Shown here one piece after another: positions 320-21,930 of a DNA stretch of 64,000 bases; within the stretch, counting starts at the first letter, position 1; every line of letters begins with the position of its first letter. Made by a program: the position numbers and the translations under genes. Source of the stretch: Pseudomonadota bacterium (lineage in GTDB: Bacteria > Desulfobacterota > Anaeroferrophillalia > Anaeroferrophillales > Tharpellaceae); the NCBI GenBank assembly GCA_011049115.1, contig DSCM01000096.1, forward strand, positions 17,158-81,157, given 5' to 3'. A model generated the notes under the pieces. The model had not been told where the DNA came from. It was given only the letters and a program-made list of their open reading frames with translations, and searched no databases.

Positions 320-748
320 CTACAGATCCCATTCGGAAGCCAGCGGATTGGCTCCCTGATCCTGCAGGGCGGCATCGTATTGCCGAATCGTCTCCGCAAA
401 AAGGCGGCCCTCGCTGGCGCTGATCCAGCGCAGCCAGACCCGTTCCGGATCAAGGCCGACACTTTCCATAATCGTTCGCAGCAAGGCAATCCGGCGCCTG
501 GCCTTAAGATTACCGGTCTGGTAATGACAGTCACCGGGATGACAACCACCGATCAGAACCCCGTCGGCCCCGTCAAGCAGCGCTTTCAAAACATAAACAA
601 CATCAATCGCGCCGGAACACATCAGATGAATAATACGGATTCCGGCCGGATACTGCTGTCTGGTAGTGCCGGCCAGATCAGCCCCGGTATAGGTACACCA
701 GTGACAGAGAAAACCGACGATTCTTGGCTCAAAGTTAGGGTCTGCCAT
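320..748 (-). CDS. mvhD: MvhD/FlpD-like methyl-viologen-reducing hydrogenase delta subunit (Hdr-associated [2Fe-2S] protein)
   Basis: 142 aa with Cys pattern FLCHWCTY...HLMCSG...GGCHPGDCHY typical of MvhD. It directly follows the giant HdrA-like gene. Confidence 0.8.
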   Translation of the reverse strand: MADPNFEPRIVGFLCHWCTYTGADLAGTTRQQYPAGIRIIHLMCSGAIDVVYVLKALLDGADGVLIGGCHPGDCHYQTGNLKARRRIALLRTIMESVGLDPERVWLRWISASEGRLFAETIRQYDAALQDQGANPLASEWDL

Positions 749-840: not shown

Positions 841-3800
841 TCAGCGCATCAGCTCGCGGCTGACGGCCATCACCTGCCCCTTGTCAAAACCAAGCTGCTG
901 GGTTGCGCCGTTGGGACAGACTGCGGCGCAGGCGCCGCAACCGTGACAAAGGTCGTAATAAACTTCAGCGATCATGGAGCTGAGGTTTATTTGCCGGGCC
1001 CCATAAGGGCAGGCTTCGACACAAAGGCCGCAGCCGCTACATAATCTATTACTGACCTGCACTGCATTTTTAGCGGGGCTCCTTTGCCTGCGGGCCAGAA
1101 CTGTCGCCGCCCGGGAAGCCGCCGCCCGGGAACGAATCAGGGTCTCCTTGATATGCAGCGGGGCCGAGGCCAGGCCGCAATGATAACGCCCCTCGCCGAC
1201 AAAATCAACCAGCGCGGCCTTGCTGTTGGCTTCGGCAAAAAAACCGTACTCATCACGCGGCAATGAAAAGATCTGAGCCAGATCAGCAAAATCCGAGGGC
1301 ACGATACCGGTACTCAAAATCAGCAGATCAGGCCGCAAAGTGACCTTATTTTTCAGAATAAGATCATTGTAACTCAGTTGCAGGGCTGAGCCGACCAGCT
1401 CGACCCGAGGTTTATCCAAAACTTCATAAGGGGTAAACAACACCCCTTGTTCCCGAGCCAGGCGATAATAATCCTCATACAGGCCGTAGGCCCTCAGGTC
1501 ACGATAAAGAACCGTAATCTCGATGGCGAAATCAAGTTCCTTGAGCTTTAAGGCATTTTTTAAAGCCTGTGTACAACAAACCCGGCTGCAATATTCAAGT
1601 TTCCCGGCTTCCCTGGAACCGACGCACTGAATCATAACAATCCGGCGGCTGGAGGCCAGGGTATCAGGCCTGGTCGCAATCCGTTCTTCCAGTTCACTCT
1701 GGGTCAAAACCCGCTCGTCCTGACCTCTAAGGTACTCGTCAGTTACAGCTTCATGGCCTCCGGGCGCCATAATCATGATTCCGTGTTTAATCAGGCGTTC
1801 ACTTTCCTGGCATTCAACCCGAGTGACATAACTCCCAACCCGCCCCTGATGCGCCAGCAAACGTGTATTAAGCAGCACTTCAATACGCGGTTCGGACTCA
1901 ACCCGAGCTCTCATGATAGCCAGTAGCTGCGACGGTTGGGAACCCTCAAGGGTGTAATAAGATTTACGCAAGCGCCCGCCCAGCTCCCCGGTTTTTTCCA
2001 CCAGGGTCACCTGATAGCCGCGACCGGCCAGGGAAAGGGCGCTATTCATCCCGGCAGCTCCACCTCCGACAACCAAGGCCCGTGCTTCCATCACCAGATT
2101 TTGCGTCGGAGCCGGCAAGGTCCGGTAAACCGTCGTGAGAGCGGCAGCAAGCAAGGCCCTGGATTTTTCAAATATAATTTCAGGGCTGCCGGCGTGAACA
2201 AAAAGATTTTGTTCACGCAAATTGGCCACGGCGAAAGCGTTGCGGTTAAAACCGATATCCTCGGCAAAGGCATCAAGTGAACGTTCCAGTTCACGCCCCG
2301 TGCAACCGCCGATGATGATCCGGTTCAAACCATGGGCTCCGATAAAACGGCGCAGACCAAGCAGACCTTCCGGGGCGCATAGATTATCAACTACTTCAAC
2401 GCAGGCCACGGCCGGACGTTTGACAAACTCTTCGGCAAGCGAAGACAGATTGAGCTCCTCCGTCATGGCGCCGTCACAGGCGCAGAGAAAAATTCCGATC
2501 TTCGGTTCTTCCAACCAGACTCCGGTAGGGCTCAAATTAAAGCCATCAAGCTCGGTCTCATTTTCCTCGCTTTCAGGTTCGGCCAGATCCACTGCCACCG
2601 CATCCGCCGCCGCCGCCGCCTCCATCACGGTTTCCGGAATATCCTTAGGACCACAAAAAGCTCCGGCGGCGTAAAGCCCCGGAATTGAGGTCTGCGTCGG
2701 AACGAACTCACCGGTTCGACAGAAACCGTAGTCATCCAGTTCAATTCCGGTCGCCGCGGCAAAATCAAGTTTGGGCGCATCAAAACCCAGGGAAAGAACC
2801 ACCAGGTCAACCTGATCTTCAGCAAAACCGCGACCATCATCGTAGACCAGACTTAAGCCGCCGGTGCGCGGATCTTCCTTGACTGTCGAGACTATCGAAC
2901 GTCGATATTCAATCGCCAATTCATCCTTGGCGCGGTTGAAATAACGCTCGTAATCCTTGCCCATGCCGCGCAGATCCATGTAGTAAACGACAACTTCGGT
3001 TTCAGGACTTCTTTCACGAACAAACATCGCCTGTTTGGTCGCATACATGCAACAAACTGCGGAACAATAGCCCCGGCCACAGGAAACATCGCGGGAACCG
3101 ACACATTGAATAAATGCGATGCGCTTGGGGATCGAACCATCCCGGGGAGAAATCGGGGTTCCCCGACTCGGACCGGAATAACTGATCATACGCTCAAACT
3201 GACGGCTGCTGACCACGTTCTGATAACGTCCGAAACCATACTCTTCTTTTAAAGCCCCATCGACCAGAGAAAAACCGGGGGTCAGAAGAACGGCATCGGC
3301 CTCAAGATCTTCTTCATAAGGGGTTACGGCTTCAAGGTCAATTGCCTGAGTCGGACAGATATTGACACAGGCTCCGCATTTAGTGCAGTTTTCCAGATCA
3401 ATCCTATAGCCCGCTTTGACCATCTTTGGATATTGTTTGTAAATCGCCTTGCGTTCTTCCAACCCGCCGCTGAATTCAAAGGGCACGCTAACCGGACAAA
3501 CCTCAACACAGCGACCGCAATCGATACAGTCTTCCTGGGAAACACCGTACGGCGTAACCGCCAAGCGCAGGACGAAATTGCCGGGCTCCCCCTGTAGGGC
3601 CACAGGCCGGCTGCCGATCCGAATCTCCAGATTTTCATGCAGACGGCACTCGACGAAAGGGCAGTAAGCCGGTTGCTTCGGAGAAAGAAAGCAGACTCCG
3701 CAAGAATTGGTGGGAAACGTATTGTCCAAAAGCGAAAAAAAACCACCAATCGCCGCCTCTTTTTCCACCAGGGTAACCGCAAACCCCTGTTCAGCCAGCT

Positions 3801-3897
3801 GCAGGGCTGCCGTCATACCGGCGAAACCGGCCCCGATCACCGCCACCTTTTTGCGTTTATCATTAATCTTTTTGCTATGTTCAGAGGCCATTTTCAA
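841..3897 (-). CDS. Giant 1018-aa fusion of HdrA-like flavoprotein, MvhD-like domain and a second HdrA-like flavoprotein (HdrL-like)
   Basis: Two Rossmann FAD motifs (VAVIGAGFAGMTAA and ALVVGGGAAGMNSA). Two HdrA signature cysteine clusters (IQCVGSRDVSCGRGYCSAVCCMY and IQCVGSREAGKLEYCSRVCC). Several CxxCxxCxxxCP ferredoxin motifs. A central MvhD-like segment IGIFLCACDG...IIGGCTG. Confidence 0.8.
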   Translation of the reverse strand: MKMASEHSKKINDKRKKVAVIGAGFAGMTAALQLAEQGFAVTLVEKEAAIGGFFSLLDNTFPTNSCGVCFLSPKQPAYCPFVECRLHENLEIRIGSRPVALQGEPGNFVLRLAVTPYGVSQEDCIDCGRCVEVCPVSVPFEFSGGLEERKAIYKQYPKMVKAGYRIDLENCTKCGACVNICPTQAIDLEAVTPYEEDLEADAVLLTPGFSLVDGALKEEYGFGRYQNVVSSRQFERMISYSGPSRGTPISPRDGSIPKRIAFIQCVGSRDVSCGRGYCSAVCCMYATKQAMFVRERSPETEVVVYYMDLRGMGKDYERYFNRAKDELAIEYRRSIVSTVKEDPRTGGLSLVYDDGRGFAEDQVDLVVLSLGFDAPKLDFAAATGIELDDYGFCRTGEFVPTQTSIPGLYAAGAFCGPKDIPETVMEAAAAADAVAVDLAEPESEENETELDGFNLSPTGVWLEEPKIGIFLCACDGAMTEELNLSSLAEEFVKRPAVACVEVVDNLCAPEGLLGLRRFIGAHGLNRIIIGGCTGRELERSLDAFAEDIGFNRNAFAVANLREQNLFVHAGSPEIIFEKSRALLAAALTTVYRTLPAPTQNLVMEARALVVGGGAAGMNSALSLAGRGYQVTLVEKTGELGGRLRKSYYTLEGSQPSQLLAIMRARVESEPRIEVLLNTRLLAHQGRVGSYVTRVECQESERLIKHGIMIMAPGGHEAVTDEYLRGQDERVLTQSELEERIATRPDTLASSRRIVMIQCVGSREAGKLEYCSRVCCTQALKNALKLKELDFAIEITVLYRDLRAYGLYEDYYRLAREQGVLFTPYEVLDKPRVELVGSALQLSYNDLILKNKVTLRPDLLILSTGIVPSDFADLAQIFSLPRDEYGFFAEANSKAALVDFVGEGRYHCGLASAPLHIKETLIRSRAAASRAATVLARRQRSPAKNAVQVSNRLCSGCGLCVEACPYGARQINLSSMIAEVYYDLCHGCGACAAVCPNGATQQLGFDKGQVMAVSRELMR

Positions 3898-3937: not shown

Positions 3938-4768
3938 TTACGCGAAAAGTTGCGCCGGATCGTTAAAATGTTTTTTCCACCAGCGTGCCCGGTCCCCGAT
4001 TTGAAAGGCCTCGGCCATCAGTTCAGTGAAATAGAGAATCGGCAGACGCTGTTGTCGAATATCGACATTGGCCTGACACAGAGCGCAGGAAGTCACCAGA
4101 CAGTCAGCCTTGGCGGCCACAGCGTAATCGGCTATCTTATTGACCAGTGCAGTGGTTTTATGGGCATCAATCAGCCCCAGATCGCCACCACAGCAGTCAA
4201 CCTTGCAGGACCAGTCAAGAACCTCGGCTCCGAGATCCGCCATCATGCGGTCTATCCGCCTGGGATTTTCACAGCTGTCGACTCCGGTTACCGCCGCCGG
4301 CCGGACAATGGCGCAACCATAATAACAAACCACCCTCAACCCTTTTAAAGGCTTTCGCACCAATTTTTTAACCGCGGGGCGCAGCTCCTCGCGGGCCAGC
4401 AAATCAACCAGGGAAAGCATGGTTACGCGCTCATCATATTTAAATCCGAATTTTTCTTCAAAAAGAGCTCGCTGGGCTAAATCATGCCGCAGAACATAGT
4501 CGGCCTGCGCCAGGTTACCATAGCAGCCGGCGCAAGGAATGACCAGGTCGCGCCCGCTTTTCTGCGCTTCGCCGACGTTGAAGGCGGAGAGCCCGAGAGC
4601 CAAGGACGACGAAAGGTTATGGGCCGAAGCGGCGCCGCAGCAGCACCAGTCATCCAGCTCCCGCAGTTCAATGCCGAGCGCCTTGATTACCGCCAGACTG
4701 GCTTCAATATACTCCATCGCGGTCGAATGCGAGGTGCATCCGGGATAATATGAATAGGTTTCACCCAT
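3938..4768 (-). CDS. hdrB: Heterodisulfide reductase subunit B-like protein (two CCG domains)
   Basis: 276 aa with YYPGCT, WCCCGA, VVCYYGC, CCGGDLG and TSCALCQ motifs. Confidence 0.85.
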   Translation of the reverse strand: MGETYSYYPGCTSHSTAMEYIEASLAVIKALGIELRELDDWCCCGAASAHNLSSSLALGLSAFNVGEAQKSGRDLVIPCAGCYGNLAQADYVLRHDLAQRALFEEKFGFKYDERVTMLSLVDLLAREELRPAVKKLVRKPLKGLRVVCYYGCAIVRPAAVTGVDSCENPRRIDRMMADLGAEVLDWSCKVDCCGGDLGLIDAHKTTALVNKIADYAVAAKADCLVTSCALCQANVDIRQQRLPILYFTELMAEAFQIGDRARWWKKHFNDPAQLFA

Positions 4769-4874
4769 CGTTTAACTGTGTCCTGATCCGAGATTACCGG
4801 AGAGATAAAAGTTTATGATATCAATGTCTTACCCAGCAAGATCTACAAATCGTCTTGATTTAAAGAACTCCGCC

Positions 4875-5399
4875 CTATTTGCCGGCCTCATTGAAAATCT
4901 TTTTTACGGTTGCGAGATTCTTGCTCTTTTTCGGCAAGATCGGAATTTTACCTCTGAGGAAAAGTTTCAGACCGACATCCAGATCCGAGGTCAGGTTTTT
5001 ACTTCTCAGTTTATAGCTCATCAACATGGTCGCCTCATGCACCCGACCGAATCTTTTGATGCTGTCAATAAACGAGGTGTGCAGGGCCACGGTTGCCGGC
5101 TCAGCCGGAGCAATCCCCTCGGCCAGGCACAAGGCCCGCAGGGAATCCATAACCGGGGCGAGTCTGATTTCATTGGGACAGCGACTGCCGCAAGTCTCAC
5201 AGGAGACACACATCCAGATCGACTTGCTGTTCAAAAGCTCGTCCTTCATGCCGAGCTGAATCATGCGAACCACCACGTTGGGAGCAAAATCAAACTCCTT
5301 GACCATGGGACAGCCAACGCTGCATTTACGGCATTGGTAACAGAGATTCAGCGGCTGACCGCTTTCAGTCATCACTTTTTGCAGAAGGGTTTCAGACAT
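4875..5399 (-). CDS. hdrC: Heterodisulfide reductase subunit C-like 2x[4Fe-4S] protein
   Basis: CYQCRKCSVGCP and CVSCETCGSRCP motifs. The start was moved to the internal ATG (MSETLL), 4 nt after the hdrA stop; the listed upstream start overlaps hdrA. Confidence 0.75.
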   Translation of the reverse strand: MSETLLQKVMTESGQPLNLCYQCRKCSVGCPMVKEFDFAPNVVVRMIQLGMKDELLNSKSIWMCVSCETCGSRCPNEIRLAPVMDSLRALCLAEGIAPAEPATVALHTSFIDSIKRFGRVHEATMLMSYKLRSKNLTSDLDVGLKLFLRGKIPILPKKSKNLATVKKIFNEAGK

Positions 5400-5403
5400 C
5401 TTT

Positions 5404-7386
5404 TTACACCGCCTCGGCTTTGCCGGCAAAATCGCCGATCATCCGGATAAATTGACGGGAAGTCGAATTAATCAACTCACAGGCCTTGTTGGGACAGGCG
5501 GCAATGCAGGCGCCGCAACCCTGGCATACCGCCTGGTTGACCTCGGAAATCCGAGTAAAATTGTTCATCAGGCGAGCTCCGTAAGGGCAGATCTCGATAC
5601 AGATGCCACAGCCGCTGCAGACATCATTTTTAACTTCGGCAATCAGGGGATCGGCAATCAGGGTTTTATTGGAAAACATAGTCTGGATCTTGCCGGCTGT
5701 AGCCAGGGCTTGCGAGACCGTGTCAGTGATATCCTTGGGAGATTGCCCGCACCCGGCGAGATAGACTCCTTTGGTCGAACTTTCCACCGGATAGAGCTTA
5801 ATATGGGTTTCCGAGAGAAAGGCATCGCCGTCAATCGTGACGTTCATCTTTTTGGCAAGATCGCGAATCCCGGTCTTAGGTTCCATGGCCATGGCCAGAA
5901 CCACCAAATCCGCCTCAATCTCCAGCTGGCGGCTACTTAACGTATCACTGGCAAACACCTTGAGCATCCCGTCTTCCGGAATCACCCTGGCAACCCGACC
6001 GCGCACATAAACCAGTTTTTCATCCTCCATGCCCCGCTGAACGAATTCTTCAAAATCACGGCTGTCGGAACGAATATCCATGTAAGAGATATAGGCCGTA
6101 CCGGTTTTAACCTGGCGGCGGTAAAGCCGCGCCTGTTTTGCCGTATACATGCAGCAGGCGCGGGAACAGTACGCTTTATGACGTTCCGGATCACGAGAAC
6201 CGGCACACTGAATAAAGACCACGCTTTCAGGAACCTTACCATTCGAAGGACACACAACCCTGCCGCCGGTAGGACCTTTGGGATCAAGCAGACGTTCAAA
6301 AGTCAAGGCGTCGATGACATCAGGTATGTCACCACCTCCGTATTCGGGGAGATTGGCCGGGTTGTAAAGGTCATAGCCGGTAGCCATGACGATCGCTCCG
6401 ACAAATTCTTTCTGCAAGGCGGGAATCGCCCCAAGATCTATCGCTTTCTCGAGGCAGGCATCACTACATAAAGTACAGGGCTCGACCTCATGGGAAGGGG
6501 CAAAATGTAAACAATCTACCTGGCGCAAAACCGGAATACGGGAAGATTCAAACTGGTTGTAACGAAAGATAGCCCCACGCCGGCTGAGTCCGCGATTAAA
6601 TTCATCGGGATTCGATACCGGACAAACTTCAATGCATTTGCCGCAGGCCGAGCAACGGGCGATGTCGACAAAAGCCGGCTGACTGCGAATGGTAACATTG
6701 AAATTACCAACGTAACCTTCCAGGTTCTCGACCTCTGAACTAGTATAAACTTTTATTTTATGATGGGCGACGACCTCGGCAATCTTCTGTTCCAACATTT
6801 CGGGAACGTTTTGGAAATAGGGAAAAGTCTGACTGATCTGAGCCATGTGGCCGCCGATGGCCGGTTCCTTTTCGATAATCACCACTTCATAGCCGGCATT
6901 GGCCAGGTCAAGCGCCGACATGATCCCGGCGATACCGCCACCGACGACACAAACGCGCTTGGTAAGATCAATCGTGATTGTCTCCAACGGCAGATTTTCT
7001 TTAACCTTGTCAAGCGTCCCGGCAATAATATTGACCGCCTTGGCCGTGGCCAAGGGTTTGTCATTCTGATGAACCCAGCTGCATTGCTCCCGAATATTGG
7101 CGATTTCCAGCAAATAAGAGTTCAAACCAACCAAACCCGCCGCCTTGCGAAAGGTATTTTCATGCATGCGGGGCGAACAACAGGCCACCACCACACCATC
7201 CAACCCCTTTTCCACGATCGTATCCTTGACCTTCTGCTGACCGGGATCGGAGCACATATACATGTAGTTTTCGGCATGCACCACGCCGTCCATTTTCAAG
7301 GTCTCAGCCACGGCCTTGTCCACATCGACACTGCTGGCGATGTTGGAACCGCACCAGCAGACAAAAACACCTAGTTTCTTTTCCAT
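5404..7386 (-). CDS. hdrA: Heterodisulfide reductase subunit A (canonical full-length HdrA)
   Basis: 660 aa. N-terminal Cys-rich domain (VCWCGSN), FAD motif VCVVGGGIAGIMSA, inserted ferredoxin, signature IQCAGSRDPERHKAYCSRACCMY, and C-terminal CSGCGICIEICP / CQGCGACIAACP. Confidence 0.85.
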   Translation of the reverse strand: MEKKLGVFVCWCGSNIASSVDVDKAVAETLKMDGVVHAENYMYMCSDPGQQKVKDTIVEKGLDGVVVACCSPRMHENTFRKAAGLVGLNSYLLEIANIREQCSWVHQNDKPLATAKAVNIIAGTLDKVKENLPLETITIDLTKRVCVVGGGIAGIMSALDLANAGYEVVIIEKEPAIGGHMAQISQTFPYFQNVPEMLEQKIAEVVAHHKIKVYTSSEVENLEGYVGNFNVTIRSQPAFVDIARCSACGKCIEVCPVSNPDEFNRGLSRRGAIFRYNQFESSRIPVLRQVDCLHFAPSHEVEPCTLCSDACLEKAIDLGAIPALQKEFVGAIVMATGYDLYNPANLPEYGGGDIPDVIDALTFERLLDPKGPTGGRVVCPSNGKVPESVVFIQCAGSRDPERHKAYCSRACCMYTAKQARLYRRQVKTGTAYISYMDIRSDSRDFEEFVQRGMEDEKLVYVRGRVARVIPEDGMLKVFASDTLSSRQLEIEADLVVLAMAMEPKTGIRDLAKKMNVTIDGDAFLSETHIKLYPVESSTKGVYLAGCGQSPKDITDTVSQALATAGKIQTMFSNKTLIADPLIAEVKNDVCSGCGICIEICPYGARLMNNFTRISEVNQAVCQGCGACIAACPNKACELINSTSRQFIRMIGDFAGKAEAV

Positions 7387-8807
7387 TAAACCGCTTCCTG
7401 CTGCTTATTACGTCGTACAGAAGAAAGAAAAACCTGAGCTTTGCTGGATGCGGCGCTGCCCTGAGCCGCTGAATCGGCAATATCCTTGGCTCCCAGACAG
7501 CAACCCGCCAGATAAATCCCAGGCCGGCCGCTCTCGACCGGCGAGAGCTTATAGTTTTCCTCGATGAAAAAACCGTCTTTATTGGACTGCAGACCCAGGA
7601 TTTCAGCCAGCTCCTGCGCTCCCTCATTGGGAACCATGGCCGCCGCCAGCACCACCAGGTCGGCTGCAATCTCTATTTTTCTACCACTCAGGGTATCGGC
7701 TCCCTGCACTATAACCTTATCTCCTTCGCGGTAAAGACGGGCGGCCCGGCCGCGAATATAGATGAGCTCTTCTTCCGCTACCGACTGCTGGATAAACTGC
7801 TCATAACCCTTTCCGGTTGACCGAATATCAATATAAAAAATATAGACCTGGCCGTCATGAACCTTATGTTTGTAAAGGCGGGCGTGCTTGGCGGTATACA
7901 TACAGCAGACCCGGGAACAATAGGATTTATGAAACTCAGGATTCCGTGAACCGACACACTGGATAAAAACAATCTCTTTCGGAGTTTTCCCGTCGGAAGG
8001 GCGAACCATGGCTCCGGCCGACGGCCCCGAGGCGGAAAGATAGCGCTCAAAGGTCAGACCGTCGATGACATCGGGAATCTCGCCACCTCCGAATTCAGGC
8101 ATCTTCTTTTTCCAGTCGTAAATATCGAAACCAGTGGCCACGATAATGGCTCCAACCTGAACCTCGAAGAAACTTTCCTGCTGCTCGTAATCAATCGCCC
8201 CGACCGGACAGACCTTGGCGCAAACCCCACATTTACCCCTGGTTAGGTAGCGGCAGCGTTCAGCATCGATCACCGGCTTGTTTGGCACCGCCTGCGGCGA
8301 CAGCGTATAAATCGCGGTCATTTTACCGGCATCCCGTTCAAACATGGCGATCCCATTGCTCGGACACTTCTGAATACAGGTACCGCACCCGGTGCATTTA
8401 TTCCAGTCAACATAAGTTTTTTTCTGTCTGACCCGAATCGTGAAATTACCCGGTTCGCCTGTCAGGGCCTCTACCTCGCAACTGGTTTTCAGGGTAACCT
8501 TGGGATGCTGCCCCGACTCAACCGTTCGTGGGGTCAAAGTACACTGGGCGCAATCAAGCGTCGGAAAAGTCTCGGAAAGTTGCAGCATCCGACCACCGAC
8601 CGACGGTAGCCTCTCAACCAAAAGTACCTGATAACCGGCATTCCCGAGGTCGATAGCAGAGGTAATACCGGTGATTCCGCCTCCGATAACCATTACCCGA
8701 CGATCAACCGGAACGCTTTCAAAGTCGCTCATACCCCCGAATACGCAGGCGCAGGAAAGCTGTTCGCCTTTTTGTTCGCCGCTCAGTTCAATTATTTCAG
8801 CCATCAA
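7386..8807 (-). CDS. Truncated HdrA-like flavoprotein lacking the N-terminal and C-terminal ferredoxin domains
   Basis: 473 aa. FAD motif VMVIGGGITGITSA and signature IQCVGSRNPEFHKSYCSRVCCMY. Inserted ferredoxin CTGCGTCIQKCP / CGVCAKVCP. Its stop forms a TAATG overlap with the next hdrA start. Confidence 0.75.
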   Translation of the reverse strand: MMAEIIELSGEQKGEQLSCACVFGGMSDFESVPVDRRVMVIGGGITGITSAIDLGNAGYQVLLVERLPSVGGRMLQLSETFPTLDCAQCTLTPRTVESGQHPKVTLKTSCEVEALTGEPGNFTIRVRQKKTYVDWNKCTGCGTCIQKCPSNGIAMFERDAGKMTAIYTLSPQAVPNKPVIDAERCRYLTRGKCGVCAKVCPVGAIDYEQQESFFEVQVGAIIVATGFDIYDWKKKMPEFGGGEIPDVIDGLTFERYLSASGPSAGAMVRPSDGKTPKEIVFIQCVGSRNPEFHKSYCSRVCCMYTAKHARLYKHKVHDGQVYIFYIDIRSTGKGYEQFIQQSVAEEELIYIRGRAARLYREGDKVIVQGADTLSGRKIEIAADLVVLAAAMVPNEGAQELAEILGLQSNKDGFFIEENYKLSPVESGRPGIYLAGCCLGAKDIADSAAQGSAASSKAQVFLSSVRRNKQQEAV

Positions 8808-8819
8808 TCAAACCTTATC

Positions 8820-9695
8820 TCAGGAAACCAGACCCTTGTCCCGCAACAGCGGAAGCGGATCAATCAGATTACGCTCAAAGCCCAGATCTTCAGCGGGCAG
8901 ATCGAGGGCAATCGCCAGCAACTGGGTAAAATAGACTACCGGAATGGTTTTAAAGGCCGCATCGCTTTGCACAATCTCAGCTTGCCGGTCATCAAGATTA
9001 AACTGACATAAAGGACAAGTGGTGATCACCAGATCGGCTCCGTTGCCGGAAGCATTCCGGAGAATGTCACGCGAGCAGCGAGTTGCCGTTGTCATCGAGT
9101 GAACCGTCTGAAAAGCACCGCAGCATTCGATCCGGTAAGGAAAGGGCACCGGTTCACCGCCTAGAGCCCGAACAAAATCTTCAAAAATAGTCGGGTTTTC
9201 CATGGCATCAAGAGCGATCTCCTTGACCGGACGCAGCAGCAGGCATCCATAATAACAGGCCACCTTGAGACCGGCCAGAGGTTTAACCACCGTATCCTGC
9301 AAGACTTTAAAACCGATTTCATCGCGCAATACCTGGAGATAATGCAGAACATCAACCTCTCCATGGTATTGACGTTCAATAAAATCGGTAATCTTGCTCC
9401 GCCGCTCCTCGTCGTTGCGCATGACGTTGTTGGTGCGCTTAAGCACATTGAAACAGACCGAACAAAGCGTTACCAGCTTATTATCGCCCCGATCTTTGGT
9501 ATCGGCCAGAATCCTGGTCGGCCCCGACATCGCGATATGATAATCGTTGGTCAACGGAAAGGTTGCACCGCAACAGGTCCAGTCGGGCAGTTCGTCAAGC
9601 TCAAAACCCAGCTTCCGGCTGCATTCGCGACCGGCGTCATCAAGTTTCTTGGCCTTGGTATAAAGGGTACATCCGGGAAAGTATGAATACTTCAT
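8820..9695 (-). CDS. hdrB: Heterodisulfide reductase subunit B-like protein (two CCG domains)
   Basis: 291 aa with FPGCT, WTCCGA, VACYYGC, ECCGAF and TTCPLCQ motifs. Confidence 0.85.
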   Translation of the reverse strand: MKYSYFPGCTLYTKAKKLDDAGRECSRKLGFELDELPDWTCCGATFPLTNDYHIAMSGPTRILADTKDRGDNKLVTLCSVCFNVLKRTNNVMRNDEERRSKITDFIERQYHGEVDVLHYLQVLRDEIGFKVLQDTVVKPLAGLKVACYYGCLLLRPVKEIALDAMENPTIFEDFVRALGGEPVPFPYRIECCGAFQTVHSMTTATRCSRDILRNASGNGADLVITTCPLCQFNLDDRQAEIVQSDAAFKTIPVVYFTQLLAIALDLPAEDLGFERNLIDPLPLLRDKGLVS

Positions 9696-9712: not shown

Positions 9713-10129
9713 TTAGAGTGGAAGGAACTTCCGATAGCCGCTGATCATCGCGATCTGCGGGGCCCGGGCCAGATATTCTTTGGAAAAATCAGTAACATCA
9801 ATATGTGCCGTTCCGCCCACTTCGCGCAGACGCAAAACCCGCAGGGCCTCCATGATTTTAGAGATATCCACTCCCTTGGGACAGCGAGCCTGACACATCA
9901 TGCAGGCGGCGCAGACCCACATTGACTTACAGTCTTTAACTTCATTTTCCAGTCCAAGTTGCAGATAGCGCACCACCTGACTGGGCAGAAGGTCCATTTC
10001 ATCAACTGCGGGACAACCTGCCGAACAATTGCCGCATTGATAACAATTAAAGAAATTTTCGCCGCTGATCTCGGCGACCTTGTTGATGAAATCACTTTTT
10101 ACCTGGGAGCGGTAAATCCTGGTTTTCAT
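9713..10129 (-). CDS. hdrC: HdrC-like 2x[4Fe-4S] ferredoxin subunit
   Basis: 138 aa with CYQCGNCSAGCP and CAACMMCQARCP motifs. Confidence 0.8.
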   Translation of the reverse strand: MKTRIYRSQVKSDFINKVAEISGENFFNCYQCGNCSAGCPAVDEMDLLPSQVVRYLQLGLENEVKDCKSMWVCAACMMCQARCPKGVDISKIMEALRVLRLREVGGTAHIDVTDFSKEYLARAPQIAMISGYRKFLPL

Positions 10130-10142
10130 GGGTTATTATCCT

Positions 10143-10700
10143 TTATCTGATATAGGGCTTAACGCCCTGTTCATACAAATCGTTACCGTAGATGTCATTG
10201 ATCACAACCACCGGAAAATCCTCGACCTCAATCCGACGAATGGCTTCCGGACCCAGATCTTCATAGGCGACAACTTCAGCCTTTTTTATACGCTGGGCGA
10301 GTAGTGCCCCAGCCCCGCCGGTCGCAGCGAAATAAACCGCATGATATTTTTCGATCGCATCACGCACTTCCCGGCTGCGACCGCCCTTGCCGATCATGCC
10401 CTTTAGACCTTCAGCCAGCAGTCGGGAAGAATAGGAATCCATGCGATAACTAGTAGTCGGACCGGCGGAACCGATAACCTTGCCGGGTTTAGCCGGAGTC
10501 GGCCCAACAAAATAAATAATCTCACCCTGCAAGGGTATCGGCAACGATTCTCCCTTAGCCAGGAGATCGACAAGCCGCTTATGCGCGGCATCGCGGCCGG
10601 TATAAATCGTACCACTGAGCAACACCCGATCGCCCGCTTTCAGATCAGCCACCACTCCTTCACTCAGCGGCGGCGTCAGACGAATAACCCGATCCATCAT
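10143..10700 (-). CDS. Class I (Fe-S) fumarate hydratase / tartrate dehydratase beta subunit (Fumerase_C-type)
   Basis: LSGTIYTGRDAAHKRL and GPTTSYRMD motifs. Start set at MMDRV, whose ATG overlaps the alpha-subunit stop in an ATGA arrangement. Confidence 0.75.
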   Translation of the reverse strand: MMDRVIRLTPPLSEGVVADLKAGDRVLLSGTIYTGRDAAHKRLVDLLAKGESLPIPLQGEIIYFVGPTPAKPGKVIGSAGPTTSYRMDSYSSRLLAEGLKGMIGKGGRSREVRDAIEKYHAVYFAATGGAGALLAQRIKKAEVVAYEDLGPEAIRRIEVEDFPVVVINDIYGNDLYEQGVKPYIR

Positions 10701-11548
10701 AAAATCGCCTCCTGGTGCCGGGCTGCATGACATTGAATATTAATCGCCAACGGCAAACTGGCAATATGACAGGGTTGCATTTTGACATGAACGGCAAAAC
10801 TGGTGATGCGACCGCCGAGCCCCTGGGGTCCGACTCCTAAATTATTGATCGCGGTCAAAAGTTCGTCCTCAAGATTTTGCAGAGCCGGATCGGGATTGGG
10901 GCTGCCGACTTCACGCAAAAGCGCTTCTTTCGCCAACATGGCCGACCGCTCGAAATTACCACCGATACCAACGCCGACAATTGTCGGCGGACAGGGATTC
11001 CCCCCCGCCTGGCGCACCCAGGCAACAACCTGCTCCTTAATCCCGGCAACGCCATCGGCCGGTTTGAGCATGACCACCTTCGACATATTTTCACTGCCAC
11101 CCCCTTTGGGGGCCACAATGATGCTTAATTGCTCTCCGGGCACAAGGTTGTAATGTATAATTGCCGGAGTATTATCGCCGGTATTGGCCCTGGTAAAGGG
11201 ATGACAGGCTGATTTCCGCAGGAACCCGTCCTGGTATCCCCGTCGGACGCCGGCATTGATTGCGCCCTCAAGACTGCCGCCGACAATTCTGACGTCCTGT
11301 CCCAAAGTAACAAAAACCACGGCCAGACCGGTATCCTGGCAGATCGGCACTTGCTCTTTTGCCGCGATTGCCGCATTTTCCTGAAGCTGCCTGATAATAT
11401 CCCCGCCGGCCGGAGACTCTTCCCTGGCGGCTGCCAGGTCCAAGGCCCGTTTCATATCCGACCCGAGATTACAATTAGCCTCTATACATAAACGAGCTAC
11501 CGTTTTTTCGACCAGCGAAACATCAATTTCACGCATTTTAAGCACCAC
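10697..11548 (-). CDS. Class I (Fe-S) fumarate hydratase / tartrate dehydratase alpha subunit
   Basis: 283 aa. N-terminal catalytic domain with the conserved CQDTG region and the archaeal-type two-subunit FumA/TtdA architecture. Confidence 0.75.
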   Translation of the reverse strand: MVLKMREIDVSLVEKTVARLCIEANCNLGSDMKRALDLAAAREESPAGGDIIRQLQENAAIAAKEQVPICQDTGLAVVFVTLGQDVRIVGGSLEGAINAGVRRGYQDGFLRKSACHPFTRANTGDNTPAIIHYNLVPGEQLSIIVAPKGGGSENMSKVVMLKPADGVAGIKEQVVAWVRQAGGNPCPPTIVGVGIGGNFERSAMLAKEALLREVGSPNPDPALQNLEDELLTAINNLGVGPQGLGGRITSFAVHVKMQPCHIASLPLAINIQCHAARHQEAIL

Positions 11549-11893: not shown

Positions 11894-13081
11894 TTAATTT
11901 TTAGACTGCAGTACCTCCGCTGGGACCACAGCTTCTACAGACCACTCCTCGGGAATAATCTGGCCAGGTTTTTCGCCATTTTTCTCCTTGATCTTAGACA
12001 ATTCAGGACGTTTAAAATCCTCCCGAACATGCTTTGGAATGCGGCCATTAAGAATCGATTCCGAACGCAGGCGACGACCAACCGTGCGTTCCATCATGGT
12101 GCCCAGCTGGAGAATCCGGTCAATGTCAATTCCGGTTTCGATTCCCATCTCGTCCATCATTACCAACATGTCTTCAAGAACGGAAAGACCAACCACATTA
12201 GGATCCTTGTAGTAGTAGTCTCCGGTCCCCAAACCCGGGACTCCGTCAACAAAATTAGCCGGCTGGCCACCAGTACCGCCGATGGTTGCTTCAAAGTTAG
12301 TGATTCCCGCCTGTAATGCCGCCAAAACATTGGCGTTGCCCCATCCCCGGGTGACATGAAAATGAGCGACATGAAGATCTGGATTGGGAAGAGCGTCCAG
12401 AATCATCGAGAAATAGCGATAGACTTTGTTCGGCGGAGCCGATCCATCATGGTCAGCATGCTCGATATCATCAGCCCCGATACTGAGCCAGCGACGAGTA
12501 AACTCAACCGCGTCCTCAAATTTAGTCGGCCCGGAAATCGGACTACCCCAAATCGTACTGACAGTTCCGCACATTTTGATTCCGACATCATGGCACTTTT
12601 TAATGCAGCGTTCGGCTTCACGCCAGTACTGCGGCAAGGTTGAACGGGAATTGGCGAAATGATGCTGTTCGTCAGTCGAAACCATCATCAGAATACGATC
12701 CGGGCCATAACCGCGCTTTTTCATCTCGATGGCCCGATCAACCGCACTTTCCCGAATGGTAATACAAGTCCATTCGATATCTTCATGTTTAATTCCACGC
12801 TTGGCCAAACGTTTCTTAAAAAGATCGTCATGCACGCTCTTCATTAACTCTTCGGCGTCTTCAAACTGAGGCATATTCCTGGGGTCGCCCAGATTGGTAA
12901 CCTCCATCCGTTTAATACCGGCAAATGCCATTTCCTGCAGATAAAAAATTTTGGCCCGGGTGGGAATAAAGTGTTCCTCATGCTGGAATCCGTCACGGAC
13001 AGTAATATCACCAATATTGACTTTTTTCGGCATTCTTTTAAAAACATCAAAAAGATCGTGGCTTGACATATTTTCCTCCAC
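11894..13081 (-). CDS. Divergent HMG-CoA lyase-like (DRE-TIM metallolyase family) protein with extra N- and C-terminal regions
   Basis: RDGFQ and HFHVTRGWGNANVLAALQAG motifs, parallel to the RDGxQN and HxHDTxG motifs of HMGL. 395 aa with a ~60-aa lysine-rich C-terminal tail. Confidence 0.55.
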   Translation of the reverse strand: MEENMSSHDLFDVFKRMPKKVNIGDITVRDGFQHEEHFIPTRAKIFYLQEMAFAGIKRMEVTNLGDPRNMPQFEDAEELMKSVHDDLFKKRLAKRGIKHEDIEWTCITIRESAVDRAIEMKKRGYGPDRILMMVSTDEQHHFANSRSTLPQYWREAERCIKKCHDVGIKMCGTVSTIWGSPISGPTKFEDAVEFTRRWLSIGADDIEHADHDGSAPPNKVYRYFSMILDALPNPDLHVAHFHVTRGWGNANVLAALQAGITNFEATIGGTGGQPANFVDGVPGLGTGDYYYKDPNVVGLSVLEDMLVMMDEMGIETGIDIDRILQLGTMMERTVGRRLRSESILNGRIPKHVREDFKRPELSKIKEKNGEKPGQIIPEEWSVEAVVPAEVLQSKN

Positions 13082-13268
13082 ACAATTATTCTTCTGATTA
13101 ATTTCCGGAAATCTTACCTACCCCCGCTGCTGATCTTTGGTATCTACCGATCAAGACCAACAAGAATACGGAACGGGCGCCTGCCACCCAAATCTTTCCG
13201 GATTAAAAGAACTCTGGCTCCGCCTGATCGATGTAATTCAGTCAATCTTAAGATAGGCGGGGCGTAAA

Positions 13269-14048
13269 CTATTCGCCAGTATAAACCGGCTCTCTTTTTT
13301 CCCTGAAAGCGGTCAGACCTTCAATGCGATCTTTAGTCGGGATGGTCACGGCATAGCAATTTGATTCGATAGCCAGGCCGCTACCTAAATCAACTTCACT
13401 GCCGTAGTTTATCGCGTACTTGGCCATTTCTAAGGCCACCGGGGCATTCTTCTTAATCTTTGCCGCCATATTCAAGGCGGCATCGAGAAGTTCACCTTGT
13501 GGCGCCACCTGATTAACAAGACCGATAGCCAGAGCTTCATCTGCCTTGGCCCGATGGGCGGTGAAAATCAACTCCTTAGCTTTGCCTTTACCGAGAAGAC
13601 GAGCCAGCCGCTGAGTTCCGCCGGCACCGGGAATAATTCCCAGGCTGGTTTCAGTCAGACCCATGGTCGCACTGGAGACCGCTATCCTGATATCACAAGC
13701 CAGGGCCAGCTCCGTTCCTCCTCCGAAAGCAAAACCATTGACCGCGGCGATCACAGGCTGGGGAAGATTTTCGACCATCGTGAAGGTGTTGCGAATCATC
13801 TGAATATACTGTTTAACCTCGATCGGGGTCATGGTCGCCCGTTCTTTGAGATCAGCGCCGGAGCAAAAAGATTTCTCCCCGGCACCGGTGATGATCACTA
13901 CCCTTACGGAACGATCAACACTGATCCCACTTACCAGTCTATTCAGGGCAGCGAGAAGCTCACGATTCAAAGAGTTCATGCTTTCGGGGCGATTTAAAGT
14001 TACAATCAAAACCCCGTCACGGTTTTCGCTTAAGATCACTTCAGACAT
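13269..14048 (-). CDS. Enoyl-CoA hydratase (crotonase family; methylglutaconyl-CoA hydratase-like)
   Basis: 259 aa with VIITGAGEKSFCSGADL and AVNGFAFGGGTELALACD crotonase motifs. Confidence 0.85.
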   Translation of the reverse strand: MSEVILSENRDGVLIVTLNRPESMNSLNRELLAALNRLVSGISVDRSVRVVIITGAGEKSFCSGADLKERATMTPIEVKQYIQMIRNTFTMVENLPQPVIAAVNGFAFGGGTELALACDIRIAVSSATMGLTETSLGIIPGAGGTQRLARLLGKGKAKELIFTAHRAKADEALAIGLVNQVAPQGELLDAALNMAAKIKKNAPVALEMAKYAINYGSEVDLGSGLAIESNCYAVTIPTKDRIEGLTAFREKREPVYTGE

Positions 14049-14152
14049 CCGTTCCCCCCAAAAAAAATCTTAATAACCCGACTAAAAGTTTAAGAACATA
14101 TAAATGTTTTTTTTCTTCTTTCGCAAACAAAAAAGATGATAAAAGTATTGTA

Positions 14153-15091
14153 TCATCTTTTTACACAGGCTCCGATAAATGATTGCATATGGCTATGCCC
14201 CCCATAGGTCAGCTGAGTTTGCCGAATTGCGACCTCTAAAAGAGCATGACTGTCAATTCCTGTCTCTATCCTCATCCCCTCAAGACAATAAAGCAGATCT
14301 TCGGTAGCCAGATTTCCAGCCGCACCGGGAGCATATGGGCAACCGCCCAGACCACTGGCGGCACTATCATAACGATCTATACCGGCCTGTAAACCGGCGA
14401 CCACGCAAGCCAAGGCCCGACCGCAACTATCGTGCAAATGAAGACCAAAATCCACTTCGGGCAGTTCTTCCTGCAGGCGAGAACAATGAGAATAAACCTG
14501 ATCCGGAGTAGCCACCCCGAGGGTATCGCACAGGGTTATTTCGTTAAAGCCAAGCGCGAACAAAGAGCCTACCAGAGAGCTGACCGCCGCATAGTCAACT
14601 TTCCCCTCATAGGGGCAGCCGAAGACATTGGAAAGAGACACCCTGCGAGCTCTGTCAAGCGGCATCATCTTAATCATCGCTTCAATCTCAGCCAGGGTTT
14701 CAGCTTGGGAACAACCCAGGTTTTTCTTATTATGCGTGTCGCTGGCCGAGATAAAAAAAACTATTTTCCCGGCCCCGGAAGCCAGCGCCGCCGTCAACCC
14801 CCGACGATTTGGCACCAGCACAGAAGTAACAAGGTCAGGGAATGAGTCAATGGCTTGCAATACCTCGGCCGCATCCCGCAGCTGAGGTATCGATTTAGGA
14901 TTGACAAAAGAAGTTACTTCGATTTCTTTAAATCCACAGGCCGCCAAACGATTAATAAGCTCGACCTTATTTTCAGTCGGGATAAAAATTTCCTGATTCT
15001 GCCAGCCGTCACGAGGGGACACCTCTACCAACCGGACCTTCTTCGGCATCAGGGAAAAACAGTCATCCATTTTTTTTAAACTCGTCTCCAC
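14153..15091 (-). CDS. Hydroxymethylglutaryl-CoA lyase
   Basis: 312 aa with VEVSPRDGWQN and GLHLHDSCG motifs. Confidence 0.8.
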   Translation of the reverse strand: METSLKKMDDCFSLMPKKVRLVEVSPRDGWQNQEIFIPTENKVELINRLAACGFKEIEVTSFVNPKSIPQLRDAAEVLQAIDSFPDLVTSVLVPNRRGLTAALASGAGKIVFFISASDTHNKKNLGCSQAETLAEIEAMIKMMPLDRARRVSLSNVFGCPYEGKVDYAAVSSLVGSLFALGFNEITLCDTLGVATPDQVYSHCSRLQEELPEVDFGLHLHDSCGRALACVVAGLQAGIDRYDSAASGLGGCPYAPGAAGNLATEDLLYCLEGMRIETGIDSHALLEVAIRQTQLTYGGHSHMQSFIGACVKR

Positions 15092-15218
15092 TATGGAACG
15101 AAATTAAAAACCCAACTTGCGAAAAATAGCCCCTCCCCTTGGACTAGAAGTCCCGGGAAAGTGCGAACCTCATTCCCAGGACTTCAAAAAAAATATCAGG
15201 CTACCTCAGGCAAAAAGC

Positions 15219-16370
15219 CTACATTAGAGATCTGGCAATCACCAGACGCTGCACTTCCGAGGTTCCTTCGCCGATTTCCAGCAATTTCTGATCCCGGTAA
15301 AAACGCTCTACATCATATTCCTGCATCAAACCATAACCACCATGGATCTGGACCGCATGGTCTACCACCCGACTCATTACTTCCGAACAGTAAAGCTTAC
15401 CCATAGCCGCTTCTTTGGAAAAAGGACGATTGTTTGAACGCAGCCAGCAAGCCTTATACAGAAGGTTGCGGGCTAATTCAATTTCCATCGCCATGTCGGC
15501 CAATTTAAACTGCGTGACCTGAAAATCAAACAAAGGACGGCTGAACTGGATTCTTTCCTGAGAATAACGCAAAGCCTTTTCAAAAGCCCCCTGGGCGCCT
15601 CCAAGTCCCATGGCTCCGATACTCAGACGACCACCATCAAGAGTGGCCAACATCTGATGAAACCCTTCACCACGTTTACCCAGAAGATTTTTGGCTGGAA
15701 CCCGACAATTGTCAAAATAGATTTCAGTCGTGTTGGATGCACGCCACATCATTTTGCCGTGCATCGGTCTGCACTCCATGCCATCCGTTCCCGACGGCAC
15801 CAGAATACAGCTCATTTCCGGACGACCATCAGCTCTTTTGCCGGTAACAGCCTGAACGATTACAACCCCGGTATTGGGGGCGGAAGCATTGGTGATAAAA
15901 ATTTTGGACCCATTAATCACCCACTCGTCGCCATCCAGAATGGCGTTAGTCTTGGAGTTGCCGGCATCTGAGCCGGCATTAGGTTCGGTCAGGCCAAATC
16001 CGGCCAGGATCTCGCCTGTGCAAAGTCTCGGCAACCATTCCTGCTTTTGTTCTTCACTTCCGTAATAATAGATCGGTCCGATCCCCAGGGAATTGCCCGC
16101 CGCGACGGTAGCTGCCTGAGAACCATCAACCCGGGCAATTTCTTCAACCGCAATAATATATGAAATATAATCCAGTCCGGATCCCCCGTACTCAGGGGAG
16201 ACAAACATCCCGAATAGTCCGAGATCACCCATTTTACGAGTCAGATCGAGAGAAAATTCTTCCTTCCGATCAAGCTCCTGGGCCACCGGGGCGATCTCTT
16301 TTTCAGCAAAACCGCGAACACTTTTACGTAGGATTTCCTGTTCTTCCGTCATATCAAAACTGAGTGCCAT
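15219..16370 (-). CDS. Acyl-CoA dehydrogenase (isovaleryl/short-branched-chain type)
   Basis: Motifs FDMTEEQ, LTEPNAGSDA and YRDQKLLEIGEGTSEVQR. Start set at the internal MALSF. Confidence 0.85.
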   Translation of the reverse strand: MALSFDMTEEQEILRKSVRGFAEKEIAPVAQELDRKEEFSLDLTRKMGDLGLFGMFVSPEYGGSGLDYISYIIAVEEIARVDGSQAATVAAGNSLGIGPIYYYGSEEQKQEWLPRLCTGEILAGFGLTEPNAGSDAGNSKTNAILDGDEWVINGSKIFITNASAPNTGVVIVQAVTGKRADGRPEMSCILVPSGTDGMECRPMHGKMMWRASNTTEIYFDNCRVPAKNLLGKRGEGFHQMLATLDGGRLSIGAMGLGGAQGAFEKALRYSQERIQFSRPLFDFQVTQFKLADMAMEIELARNLLYKACWLRSNNRPFSKEAAMGKLYCSEVMSRVVDHAVQIHGGYGLMQEYDVERFYRDQKLLEIGEGTSEVQRLVIARSLM

Positions 16371-16567
16371 AGGTCTACCCTTCCTTAAAATTCCCACCTT
16401 ACGTTAACTGTTAAACCAATCACCAAAAAAAAGGAACCCGACTTTATCTTTCCTTCGAGAGGGGTTGTAAATTATATTATTTCCGTAGGCTTGTCAACGA
16501 AAATCCCCAAACATAATTATGTTTTCATTGTAAGCAGCATAATCCTGCGCGAAAGTCACAATAAAGA

Positions 16568-21890: not shown

Positions 21891-21930
21891 TTTATACCCT
21901 GATTTACCCCCGTCCATCAAATGCCATGGC

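Follow-up and report, generated by a model that had tools for sequence, protein, structure and literature searches.

A 64,000-nucleotide stretch of a Desulfobacterota genome assembly (GCA_011049115.1, contig DSCM01000096.1, positions 17,158 to 81,157; hereafter the window) encodes two adjacent homologues of HdrA, the flavoprotein of heterodisulfide reductase, one short and one long. We propose, with a rough probability of 0.68, that the two form an obligate asymmetric heterodimer with a single mobile arm and a single arm-served, presumably bifurcating flavin, because the long protein keeps exactly the arm and the short protein keeps exactly what an arm serves. The comparative basis of this proposal comprises domain architecture, complementary conservation, synteny, co-divergence and purifying selection. 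The genes of interest are all encoded on the minus strand, and the features of the two hdrA genes are as follows.

7386..8804, minus: short hdrA; 472 amino acids from ATG 8804 (473 if TTG 8807)
8541..8567, minus: FPTLDCAQC codons, short HdrA residues 80-88; Cys pair, unchanged in all short-type relatives
7384..7388, minus: TAATG junction; short hdrA TAA at 7388-7386, long hdrA ATG at 7386-7384, 1 base in common
5404..7386, minus: long hdrA; 660 amino acids with N-terminal domain, core, inserted ferredoxin and C-terminal ferredoxin; Cys pair missing
6988..7386, minus: N-terminal domain of long HdrA, about residues 1-133; half of the putative mobile arm
6796..6825, minus: degenerate Cys-pair site FPYFQNVPEM of long HdrA; Asn193/Glu196 at the Cys194/Cys197 positions
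5404..5664, minus: C-terminal 2x[4Fe-4S] ferredoxin of long HdrA, about residues 575-660; other half of the putative mobile arm

Two HdrA paralogues in tandem

The short protein is the core of a methanogen-type HdrA flavoprotein. Its residues 28-462 align to residues 136-566 of the M. thermolithotrophicus HdrA (5odc_A; phmmer, E 3.6e-122), a stretch made up of the thioredoxin-reductase-like flavin adenine dinucleotide (FAD) core and the ferredoxin inserted in it. The core shows the GxGxxG and C-terminal GxYxAG...D motifs and is matched by the Pfam families Pyr_redox_2, NAD_binding_8 and FAD_oxidored. Its cluster motif reads CVGSRNx8CSRVCC, the segment CVGSRNPEFHKSYCSRVCC following the pattern CxGxRDx6-8CSx2CC with N in place of D, and the four cysteines are kept in 11 of 11 orthologues. 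Equally invariant are the eight cysteines of the inserted 2x[4Fe-4S] ferredoxin (Cys 137, 140, 143, 147, 184, 192, 195 and 199; 11/11), a domain covered by Pfam Fer4 matches at residues 132-205. The short sequence FPTLDCAQC aligns with FPTNDCSIC of 5odc_A, and Cys85/Cys88 correspond to Cys194/Cys197 of M. thermolithotrophicus HdrA and to Cys202/205 of M. marburgensis HdrA.

Neither terminal domain was found in the short protein: the alignment to 5odc_A begins at residue 136 of the latter, leaving out the N-terminal domain with its shuttle cluster, and the short protein stops about 10 residues past the core (5odc_A residue 566), leaving out the C-terminal 2x[4Fe-4S] ferredoxin on the MvhD side. 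An AlphaFold2 model built from 50 homologues (predicted local distance difference test, pLDDT, 76.7; predicted template modelling score, pTM, 0.81) superposes best on methanogen HdrA (Foldseek template modelling score, TM, 0.80-0.81; 43-45% identity), the fit being especially good for the cryo-electron microscopy (cryo-EM) chain 8rwn_A, which was itself modelled without the terminal domains (428 residues, TM 0.81/0.89, 43% identity). Residues 1-30 have pLDDT values below 50 and are variable or absent in orthologues. Alignment, cysteine motifs and model agree with an earlier note on this DNA, which had described a FAD fold, an inserted ferredoxin and the signature cluster in a protein with no N- or C-terminal domain. 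Scores against the NCBIfam models of coenzyme B-coenzyme M HdrA/HdrA2 fall below the cut-offs (NF040770, 468.9 bits vs 1100; NF041778, 386 bits vs 1400). The short protein has a "CAC" near its N-terminus, which might be read as a vestige of the N-domain CxC; a functional role was rejected, since only 5 of 11 orthologues have it and several lack the region altogether.

Translation of the short gene more likely starts at ATG 8804, with a Shine-Dalgarno-like AAGG 8 nt before it, than at TTG 8807, and the resulting 472-residue protein is identical to P0001, a protein annotated independently by NCBI in a metagenome assembly. The TAATG overlap of the short stop and the long start, pointed out in the earlier note, is read directly in the sequence, and AGGAAG stands 7 nt upstream of the long ATG. 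The translational coupling deduced from it fares less well: an overlap is present in the window and in five related loci (L006, L007, L009, L015 and L091), but other relatives have a gap of roughly 15 to 460 nt between the two genes, which means that the overlap itself is not conserved. A programmed frameshift joining the two reading frames at TAATG was also considered and rejected, as no canonical slippery heptamer was found there and most relatives have an intergenic gap.

The long protein matches nearly the whole of the same methanogen reference (5odc_A residues 3-646; phmmer, E 5e-163) and scores 665 bits against the NCBIfam cut-off of 1100 for coenzyme B-coenzyme M HdrA. Cys10, 12, 45 and 70 of its N-terminal domain are kept in 11 of 11 orthologues and Cys102 in 10 of 11, and all eight cysteines of its C-terminal ferredoxin are kept in 11 of 11. 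Judged by its sequence, it is nonetheless not an ordinary methanogen-type HdrA, the Cys194/197 pair being gone. At residues 69-70 (7177-7182, minus) most orthologues read ACCSP, as against AACSP in canonical HdrAs; the extra cysteine, Cys69, occurs in 8 of 11 long orthologues.

Complementary losses in related loci

Relatives were gathered in four ways: by look-ups from homologues of the short protein, by look-ups from homologues of the long protein, by a scan of species-representative genomes and by an MvhD-anchored scan of metagenomes. The gene block (fumAB)-hdrC1B1-short-long-hdrC2B2-hdrL-mvhD was found in more than 25 loci, mostly in metagenome assemblies of Desulfobacterota or "Deltaproteobacteria", with partial versions in two loci of Chloroflexota. 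Short and long genes were adjacent in every related locus examined, and every sampled long-type gene lay directly 3' of a short-type gene.

The features missing from one paralogue are those retained by the other. FPTLDCAQC is unchanged in 15/15 short orthologues and in 120/120 of the closest cluster representatives, 119 of which have no C-terminal ferredoxin. None of 14 long orthologues has Cys194 and two have Cys197, and the figures for the 120 closest cluster representatives of the long protein are 0 and 16, respectively. About 65 single-copy full-length HdrAs from many phyla, taken from the same data set as a control, retain the Cys pair. The sequence TFPT[LM]DCxxC was found in about 55 single-copy HdrA loci, and about 11 further single-copy HdrAs appear as split open reading frames (ORFs) of 194 and 460 codons, which we read as selenocysteine at position 197 (the sequence was inspected in locus L021 only). 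Loss of the pair is confined to long paralogues that have a short gene next to them.

The split-ORF loci are L021, L040, L043, L050, L053, L058, L061, L065, L074, L077 and L081, and such HdrAs occur in Bacillota (Pelotomaculum, Syntrophomonadaceae, Desulfofundulus). The codon at the Cys197 position of L021 is an in-frame TGA (FPTLDCSA*I), presumably encoding selenocysteine as in Methanococcus. In mechanical ORF lists, the 194- and 460-residue halves could pass for short HdrAs. The sole close relative of the short protein with a C-terminal ferredoxin is P0036 (551 amino acids, on a 3-kb contig of the Joint Genome Institute), whose sequence changes after CSRVCC to a different HdrA-like C-terminal half and which may be a chimeric assembly or a recombinant.

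Truncation of the short lineage is graded. The N-terminal domain is retained, minus one conserved cysteine, in 53 of the 120 closest short relatives, and Cys197 persists in the long partner in 2/4 loci whose short partner bears an N-domain, as against 0/10 with a truncated short partner. This looks like a reciprocal, stepwise decay, of which the 472-residue form in the window would be the end state.

Neighbour-joining trees (numpy distances, 100 bootstraps, about 420 columns) of the short proteins, the long proteins and the first module of HdrL (see below) are congruent, each with a bootstrap value of 100 for an 11-member clade of Desulfobacterota-type loci and the window; addition of the two Chloroflexota loci to the short clade gives a value of 82. 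By neighbour-joining the short protein falls among canonical full-length HdrAs, and the long clade nests among them too. From its position, the short protein is a full-length HdrA that lost both terminal domains. A simpler arrangement, fumAB-hdrC1B1-hdrA-mvhD, is seen in locus L071 (a Proteobacteria metagenome assembly, 4868-6841), with one complete HdrA carrying N-domain, Cys pair and C-terminal ferredoxin; parts of this protein resemble the short lineage by eye, and the locus may represent a state before the joining of two units.

The earlier note had also connected the short protein with the sHdr complexes of sulfur oxidisers, and this connection does not stand. sHdrA (6tjr, 349 amino acids) has no inserted ferredoxin and shows 25% identity and TM 0.66 to the short protein, as against 43-45% and about 0.8 for methanogen HdrA; by sequence it aligns to residues 218-464 only (6tjr_A, E 6.6e-46) and ranks twelfth among the structure matches of the model (TMq 0.66). 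The minimal sHdrA form measures about 340-350 residues without inserted ferredoxin, whereas the short protein has 472 with a complete one, and about half of its closest relatives still carry the decaying N-terminal domain. As the tree contained no sHdrA sequence, the placement of sHdrA rests on bit scores and Foldseek. No shdrH and no genes for lipoate-binding protein (LbpA) or the sulfur transferases DsrE and TusA were seen, either in the related loci or among the ORFs scanned over the first 34 kb of the window; the neighbours are instead fumarase, HMGL-like, enoyl-CoA hydratase, acyl-CoA dehydrogenase, HdrL and MvhD genes. The gene order hdrC1-hdrB1-hdrA(short)-hdrA(long)-hdrC2-hdrB2 does match the shdrC1B1AHC2B2 order of type I shdr clusters, for which one HdrA dimer with two different HdrBC modules has been predicted (PMC11094781). 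That order and the precedent of two HdrBC modules are what the two systems have in common; sHdrA is a homodimer, and its clusters include LbpA, DsrE and TusA.

A predicted heterodimer and its alternatives

Methanogen HdrA, known from the MvhAGD-, Fdh- and Elp-HdrABC complexes (5odc, 7bkb, 8rvu), shares with the short protein the core fold, FAD motifs, cluster motif, inserted ferredoxin and Cys pair. It is a homodimer with an arm and a Cys pair in each subunit, whereas here each paralogue has one of the two and the host is a bacterium. In the methanogen enzyme Cys197 of one HdrA contributes to the N-domain cluster of its partner, so that the dimer is obligate (PMC9012536). According to a cryo-EM study of 2026 (PMC13580544), the terminal domains together make up a mobile arm serving the FAD of the partner across the Cys pair: electrons reach FAD' of the partner HdrA' from the [2Fe-2S] cluster of MvhD, the Cys202'/205' pair lying between the two, and the semiquinone electron passes from the "shuttle" cluster HA3 of the N-domain to HA5'/HA6' in the inserted ferredoxin of the partner. 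Another cryo-EM study of the same year considers a possible selenylsulfide relay at Sec197 of M. maripaludis (PMC13518236).

We suggest that these roles, held in methanogens by two identical cross-serving HdrAs, are divided here between two paralogues. The long protein would provide the arm, with its N-domain cluster, its C-terminal ferredoxin and the docking side for MvhD, and has no Cys pair; the short one would provide what the arm serves, namely the FAD core, the Cys pair, the inserted ferredoxin and the core cluster leading to HdrC. The arm of long HdrA would bring electrons to the FAD of short HdrA across the Cys85/Cys88 pair, and the low-potential electron would leave through the N-domain shuttle cluster to the inserted ferredoxin of the partner. 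The predicted complex is (HdrB1C1-HdrA_short)(HdrA_long-HdrB2C2) plus MvhD, each half having its own HdrBC. We infer from the comparative data the physical association itself, the identity of the bifurcating flavin and the substrates. The heteromeric HdrA-HdrA' core put forward in the earlier note thereby gains strong comparative support from complementary losses, strict adjacency, co-divergence and the HdrL fusion.

Two identical, cross-wired sites and a moving arm make flavin-based bifurcation by the HdrA homodimer hard to dissect. If the proposed heterodimer is real, nature has separated the arm from the arm-served flavin with its Cys pair, and separate tests become feasible for the Cys pair, the shuttle cluster and the individual HdrBC branches, points on which the structural papers disagree. 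The pair is common in sediment Desulfobacterota.

The heterodimer principle as such is not new. Chadwick et al. 2022 (PLoS Biol, PMC9012536) inferred symmetry-breaking heterodimers for the tandem HdrA5/6 and HdrA12/13 of anaerobic methanotrophic archaea (ANME) from the complementarity of N-domain and Cys197 and of C-terminal ferredoxins, and pointed out the same complementarity in fused HdrAs. Adjacent hdrA genes, one encoding an N-terminal domain (and C-terminal ferredoxin) without Cys197, and the logic of the argument are common to both cases. The window has all of these traits: two hdrA genes overlapping by 1 nt, a C-terminal ferredoxin with eight cysteines in the long paralogue (11/11) and none in the short, and complementary N-domain and Cys pair. 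The ANME pairs are archaeal, whereas the present one is bacterial, flanked by two distinct hdrCB pairs and placed in an operon with fumarase, HdrL and MvhD genes. New here are a well-documented bacterial case and the mechanistic mapping. Two adjacent HdrABC sets have been mentioned in Seep-SRB1g without interpretation (PMC10553843).

A fused analogue of the pair is encoded in the same operon:

841..3897, minus: hdrL; 1018 amino acids, fusion of two HdrA-like modules

Module 1 of HdrL (residues 13-435) is short-like, with the Cys pair FPTNSCGVC, an inserted ferredoxin and no terminal domains; its Cys pair is unchanged in 12/12 orthologues. Module 2 (residues 464-1018) is long-like, with an N-terminal domain, the core cluster motif, a C-terminal ferredoxin and no cysteine at the pair position, although its inserted ferredoxin is apparently missing. 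The description of HdrL as just an HdrA with a GltD-like NAD-binding domain was rejected in favour of these two complementary modules, which stand in the same order, short-like then long-like, as the tandem genes. Since module 1 has only 32-33% identity to either HdrA, fusion and split pair would be independent solutions. By "Rosetta-stone" logic, the joining of such parts in one protein means that the separate arm-less and pair-less versions probably bind each other. Fused double HdrAs include the HdrL of Desulfobacterium and Syntrophobacter (PMC2702500, PMC5947623), ANME HdrA3/4 and the HdrA of the Moorella MetFV-HdrABC-MvhD complex. The HdrL of the window is the covalent counterpart of short plus long; the ANME fusions share the complementarity but have the reverse module order. 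HdrL module 2 has lost its N-domain cysteines in L011, L086, L087 and L088, the lineage whose "short" HdrA retains an N-terminal domain. Each cluster thus still has about two N-domains that bear cysteines, and arms may be shared between units.

Several points weigh against the heterodimer proposal. No experimental data on such a heterodimer were found in the literature searched, and the trees are of the neighbour-joining type only. The long subunit has FAD motifs, a core cluster, an inserted ferredoxin and its own HdrBC, so its flavin is probably not idle and the picture of one active site may be too simple; a role as mere scaffold is unlikely. Its extra Cys69 might serve as a replacement ligand for Cys197', making the long subunit self-sufficient. 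The cysteine loss in HdrL module 2 hints at other pairings, for example of the short protein with HdrL. Finally, the structures disagree on the role of the Cys pair, which has been described as a cluster ligand (PMC9012536), a selenylsulfide relay (PMC13518236) or a binder of an unknown ligand (PMC13580544).

Some of these observations would fit two independent homodimeric complexes whose gene sets are mere neighbours, a possibility that we consider unlikely. One complex would be (HdrA_short-HdrB1C1)2, similar to a non-bifurcating sHdr-type or simple flavoprotein disulfide reductase, and the other (HdrA_long-HdrB2C2)2 with MvhD and HdrL, as in known HdrABC/HdrL clusters. Each HdrA is indeed adjoined by its own HdrBC, the two pairs being only 30-36% identical; the single-HdrA cluster of L071 and the hdrABC/hdrL cluster of S. 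fumaroxidans suggest an operon made from joined units; sHdrA, which lacks terminal domains, forms a homodimer in the crystal (PMC11094781); and Cys69 could complete the N-domain cluster of the long HdrA. However, a long homodimer would have two arms and no Cys pair to serve, and a short homodimer would have Cys pairs with no arm, MvhD docking site or shuttle cluster, and yet both feature sets, thus left partnerless, are strictly conserved. The Cys pair has been lost only beside a short partner, long-type genes were sampled only directly after short-type ones, and HdrL unites short-like and long-like modules in one polypeptide. These points favour the short:long heterodimer.

Quite unlikely in our view is a different pairing, for instance of the long protein with HdrL module 1 or of the short protein docking on HdrL, in a larger assembly of four HdrA-like cores; the tandem genes would then contribute to a single machine in which their products are no direct dimer partners. 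It would be consistent with module 1 also being arm-less with an invariant Cys pair, with the pattern of cysteine loss in module 2, as if arms were exchangeable, and with two HdrBC pairs being encoded for four HdrA-like cores. Nevertheless, in the lineage of the window HdrL is internally complementary, module 2 providing the arm for module 1, and a partnership of long HdrA with HdrL as the main one is less likely because HdrL has its own arm and its own Cys pair. The short gene is always next to the long one and in some loci overlaps it, whereas hdrC2B2 lies between them and hdrL, and L091 has the short and long genes followed by a shorter, divergent HdrL-like ORF (39% identity) and no hdrC2B2.

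The probability that the short gene results from misassembly or a frameshift artefact, or is the pseudogene remnant of a decaying longer hdrA, is negligible: its unusual length, and nothing more, speaks for this, against the independent annotation of the identical protein, the existence of 120 cluster representatives with at least 60% identity (a C-terminal ferredoxin occurring only in the odd 551-residue sequence), about 140 invariant columns in the alignment of short relatives, the separateness of the two genes in every related locus examined, and purifying selection on both (ratio of nonsynonymous to synonymous substitution rates, dN/dS, at most 0.09, with dS saturated). The frameshift split of one longer hdrA, which the earlier note had named as a finding that would overturn its view, is contradicted by two complete paralogues that are 44% identical, each with a complete FAD core.

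The operon and its possible function

In order of transcription the operon reads fumAB-hdrC1-hdrB1-short hdrA-long hdrA-hdrC2-hdrB2-hdrL-mvhD-FeS protein. The features surrounding the genes listed above are the following.

11877-11850, minus: terminator-like hairpin, 11-bp stem and T run, after the upstream HMGL-like gene
11644-11617, minus: promoter-like site before fumA
10697-11548, minus: class I fumarate hydratase alpha, first operon gene; upstream of hdrC1 also in relatives
10143-10733, minus: class I fumarate hydratase beta; upstream of hdrC1 also in relatives
9713..10129, minus: hdrC1; 138 amino acids, 2x[4Fe-4S]
8820..9695, minus: hdrB1; 291 amino acids, two complete CCG motifs; nearest to methanogen HdrB (E 1e-44)
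4875..5399, minus: hdrC2; 174 amino acids from an internal ATG (mechanical ORF from TTG 5429)
3938..4768, minus: hdrB2; 276 amino acids, two CCG motifs
320..748, minus: mvhD/flpD homologue; 142 amino acids
1..207, minus: 5' end of the gene for a 382-residue Fe-S protein, first 69 codons in the window

Promoter and terminator calls come from a consensus scan only; the hairpin and the promoter-like site suggest a probable operon boundary, with the operon starting at fumA. Both HdrB and both HdrC proteins are methanogen-like with all motifs complete, HdrC2 being 36% identical to HdrC1 and HdrB2 30% identical to HdrB1. The first 69 residues of the Fe-S protein are 96% identical to the homologue in L007, and because its gene is cut by the window edge, the operon extends beyond the window. 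The half of the operon consisting of long hdrA, hdrC2B2, hdrL, mvhD and the Fe-S gene resembles the HdrABC/HdrL cluster of Syntrophobacter fumaroxidans, whose products are abundant under sulfate-reducing conditions (PMC5947623).

In relatives, including the closest (L006-L009), mvhD is followed by genes for the 382-residue Fe-S protein, a 264-residue Fe-S protein and a 561-residue flavoprotein, which scores best in NCBIfam against TfrA, a subunit of thiol:fumarate reductase (E 1.6e-99; 334 bits vs a cut-off of 718). The same extension was found in L011, L012, L089, L099 (10546-14353), L100 and others; the TfrA-like gene lies outside the window. The pair of 264-residue Fe-S protein and TfrA-like flavoprotein is likewise encoded after single-HdrA/MvhD clusters of Planctomycetota, Clostridia, Acidobacteriota, Aminicenantes and Thermococci. 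Upstream, genes for a LacI-type regulator, malate dehydrogenase, malic enzyme or carboxyltransferase are often present in relatives. The more distant L086-L090 have genes for a LacI-type regulator and malate dehydrogenase ahead of fumAB, and also for malic enzyme in L087 and for an HMGL-like/PYC_OADA carboxyltransferase in L089 and L090, so that the enzymes leading from pyruvate or oxaloacetate to fumarate stand beside the Hdr genes; L089 and L090 have a UbiA prenyltransferase gene between fumB and hdrC1.

The occurrence of fumarase, malate dehydrogenase and a TfrA-like flavoprotein in the operon and its relatives suggests, as a hypothesis, fumarate/succinate as the linked high-potential couple. 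The gene content differs from that of a TfrAB enzyme: relatives have the TfrA-like flavoprotein and fumarase and no TfrB, the CCG domains being on separate HdrB proteins. An Hdr-Flx-fed fumarate reduction, with a link of Hdr to thiol:fumarate reductase, has been proposed for the reductive tricarboxylic acid cycle cluster of the Riftia symbiont (PMC11636981). Quite tentatively, the operon may encode a "half-of-sites" bifurcating or confurcating machine made of the short:long heterodimer, two HdrBC, HdrL as a module on the NAD(P)H side and the TfrA-like flavoprotein, acting on the fumarate/succinate couple. The succinate/fumarate step is energetically awkward, and the operon may mark an uncharacterised means by which sulfate reducers and syntrophs couple it to ferredoxin and NAD(P)H; if the tentative machine exists, Desulfobacterota and other anaerobes have a soluble Hdr-linked fumarate reductase or succinate dehydrogenase.

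Two related loci carry insertions within the operon: nucleotidyltransferase/HepT-type toxin-antitoxin pairs (L004, 11346-13372; L005, 6499-8525) lie between long hdrA and hdrC2 and between hdrC2 and hdrB2. Upstream of the operon in the window, a separate transcription unit (11894-16397, minus) encodes an atypical HMGL-like protein of 395 amino acids, an enoyl-CoA hydratase, an HMG-CoA lyase and an acyl-CoA dehydrogenase; the gene for the 395-residue protein adjoins fumA in the closest relatives L001-L003 as well. The scanned remainder of the window (about 19-34 kb) holds housekeeping genes that give no clue to function. A gene for a bacterial selenocysteine elongation factor, SelB, lies at 19977-21920 (minus), and the host organism therefore probably makes selenoproteins; despite this, both HdrAs and HdrL have cysteine at the position in question or have lost it.

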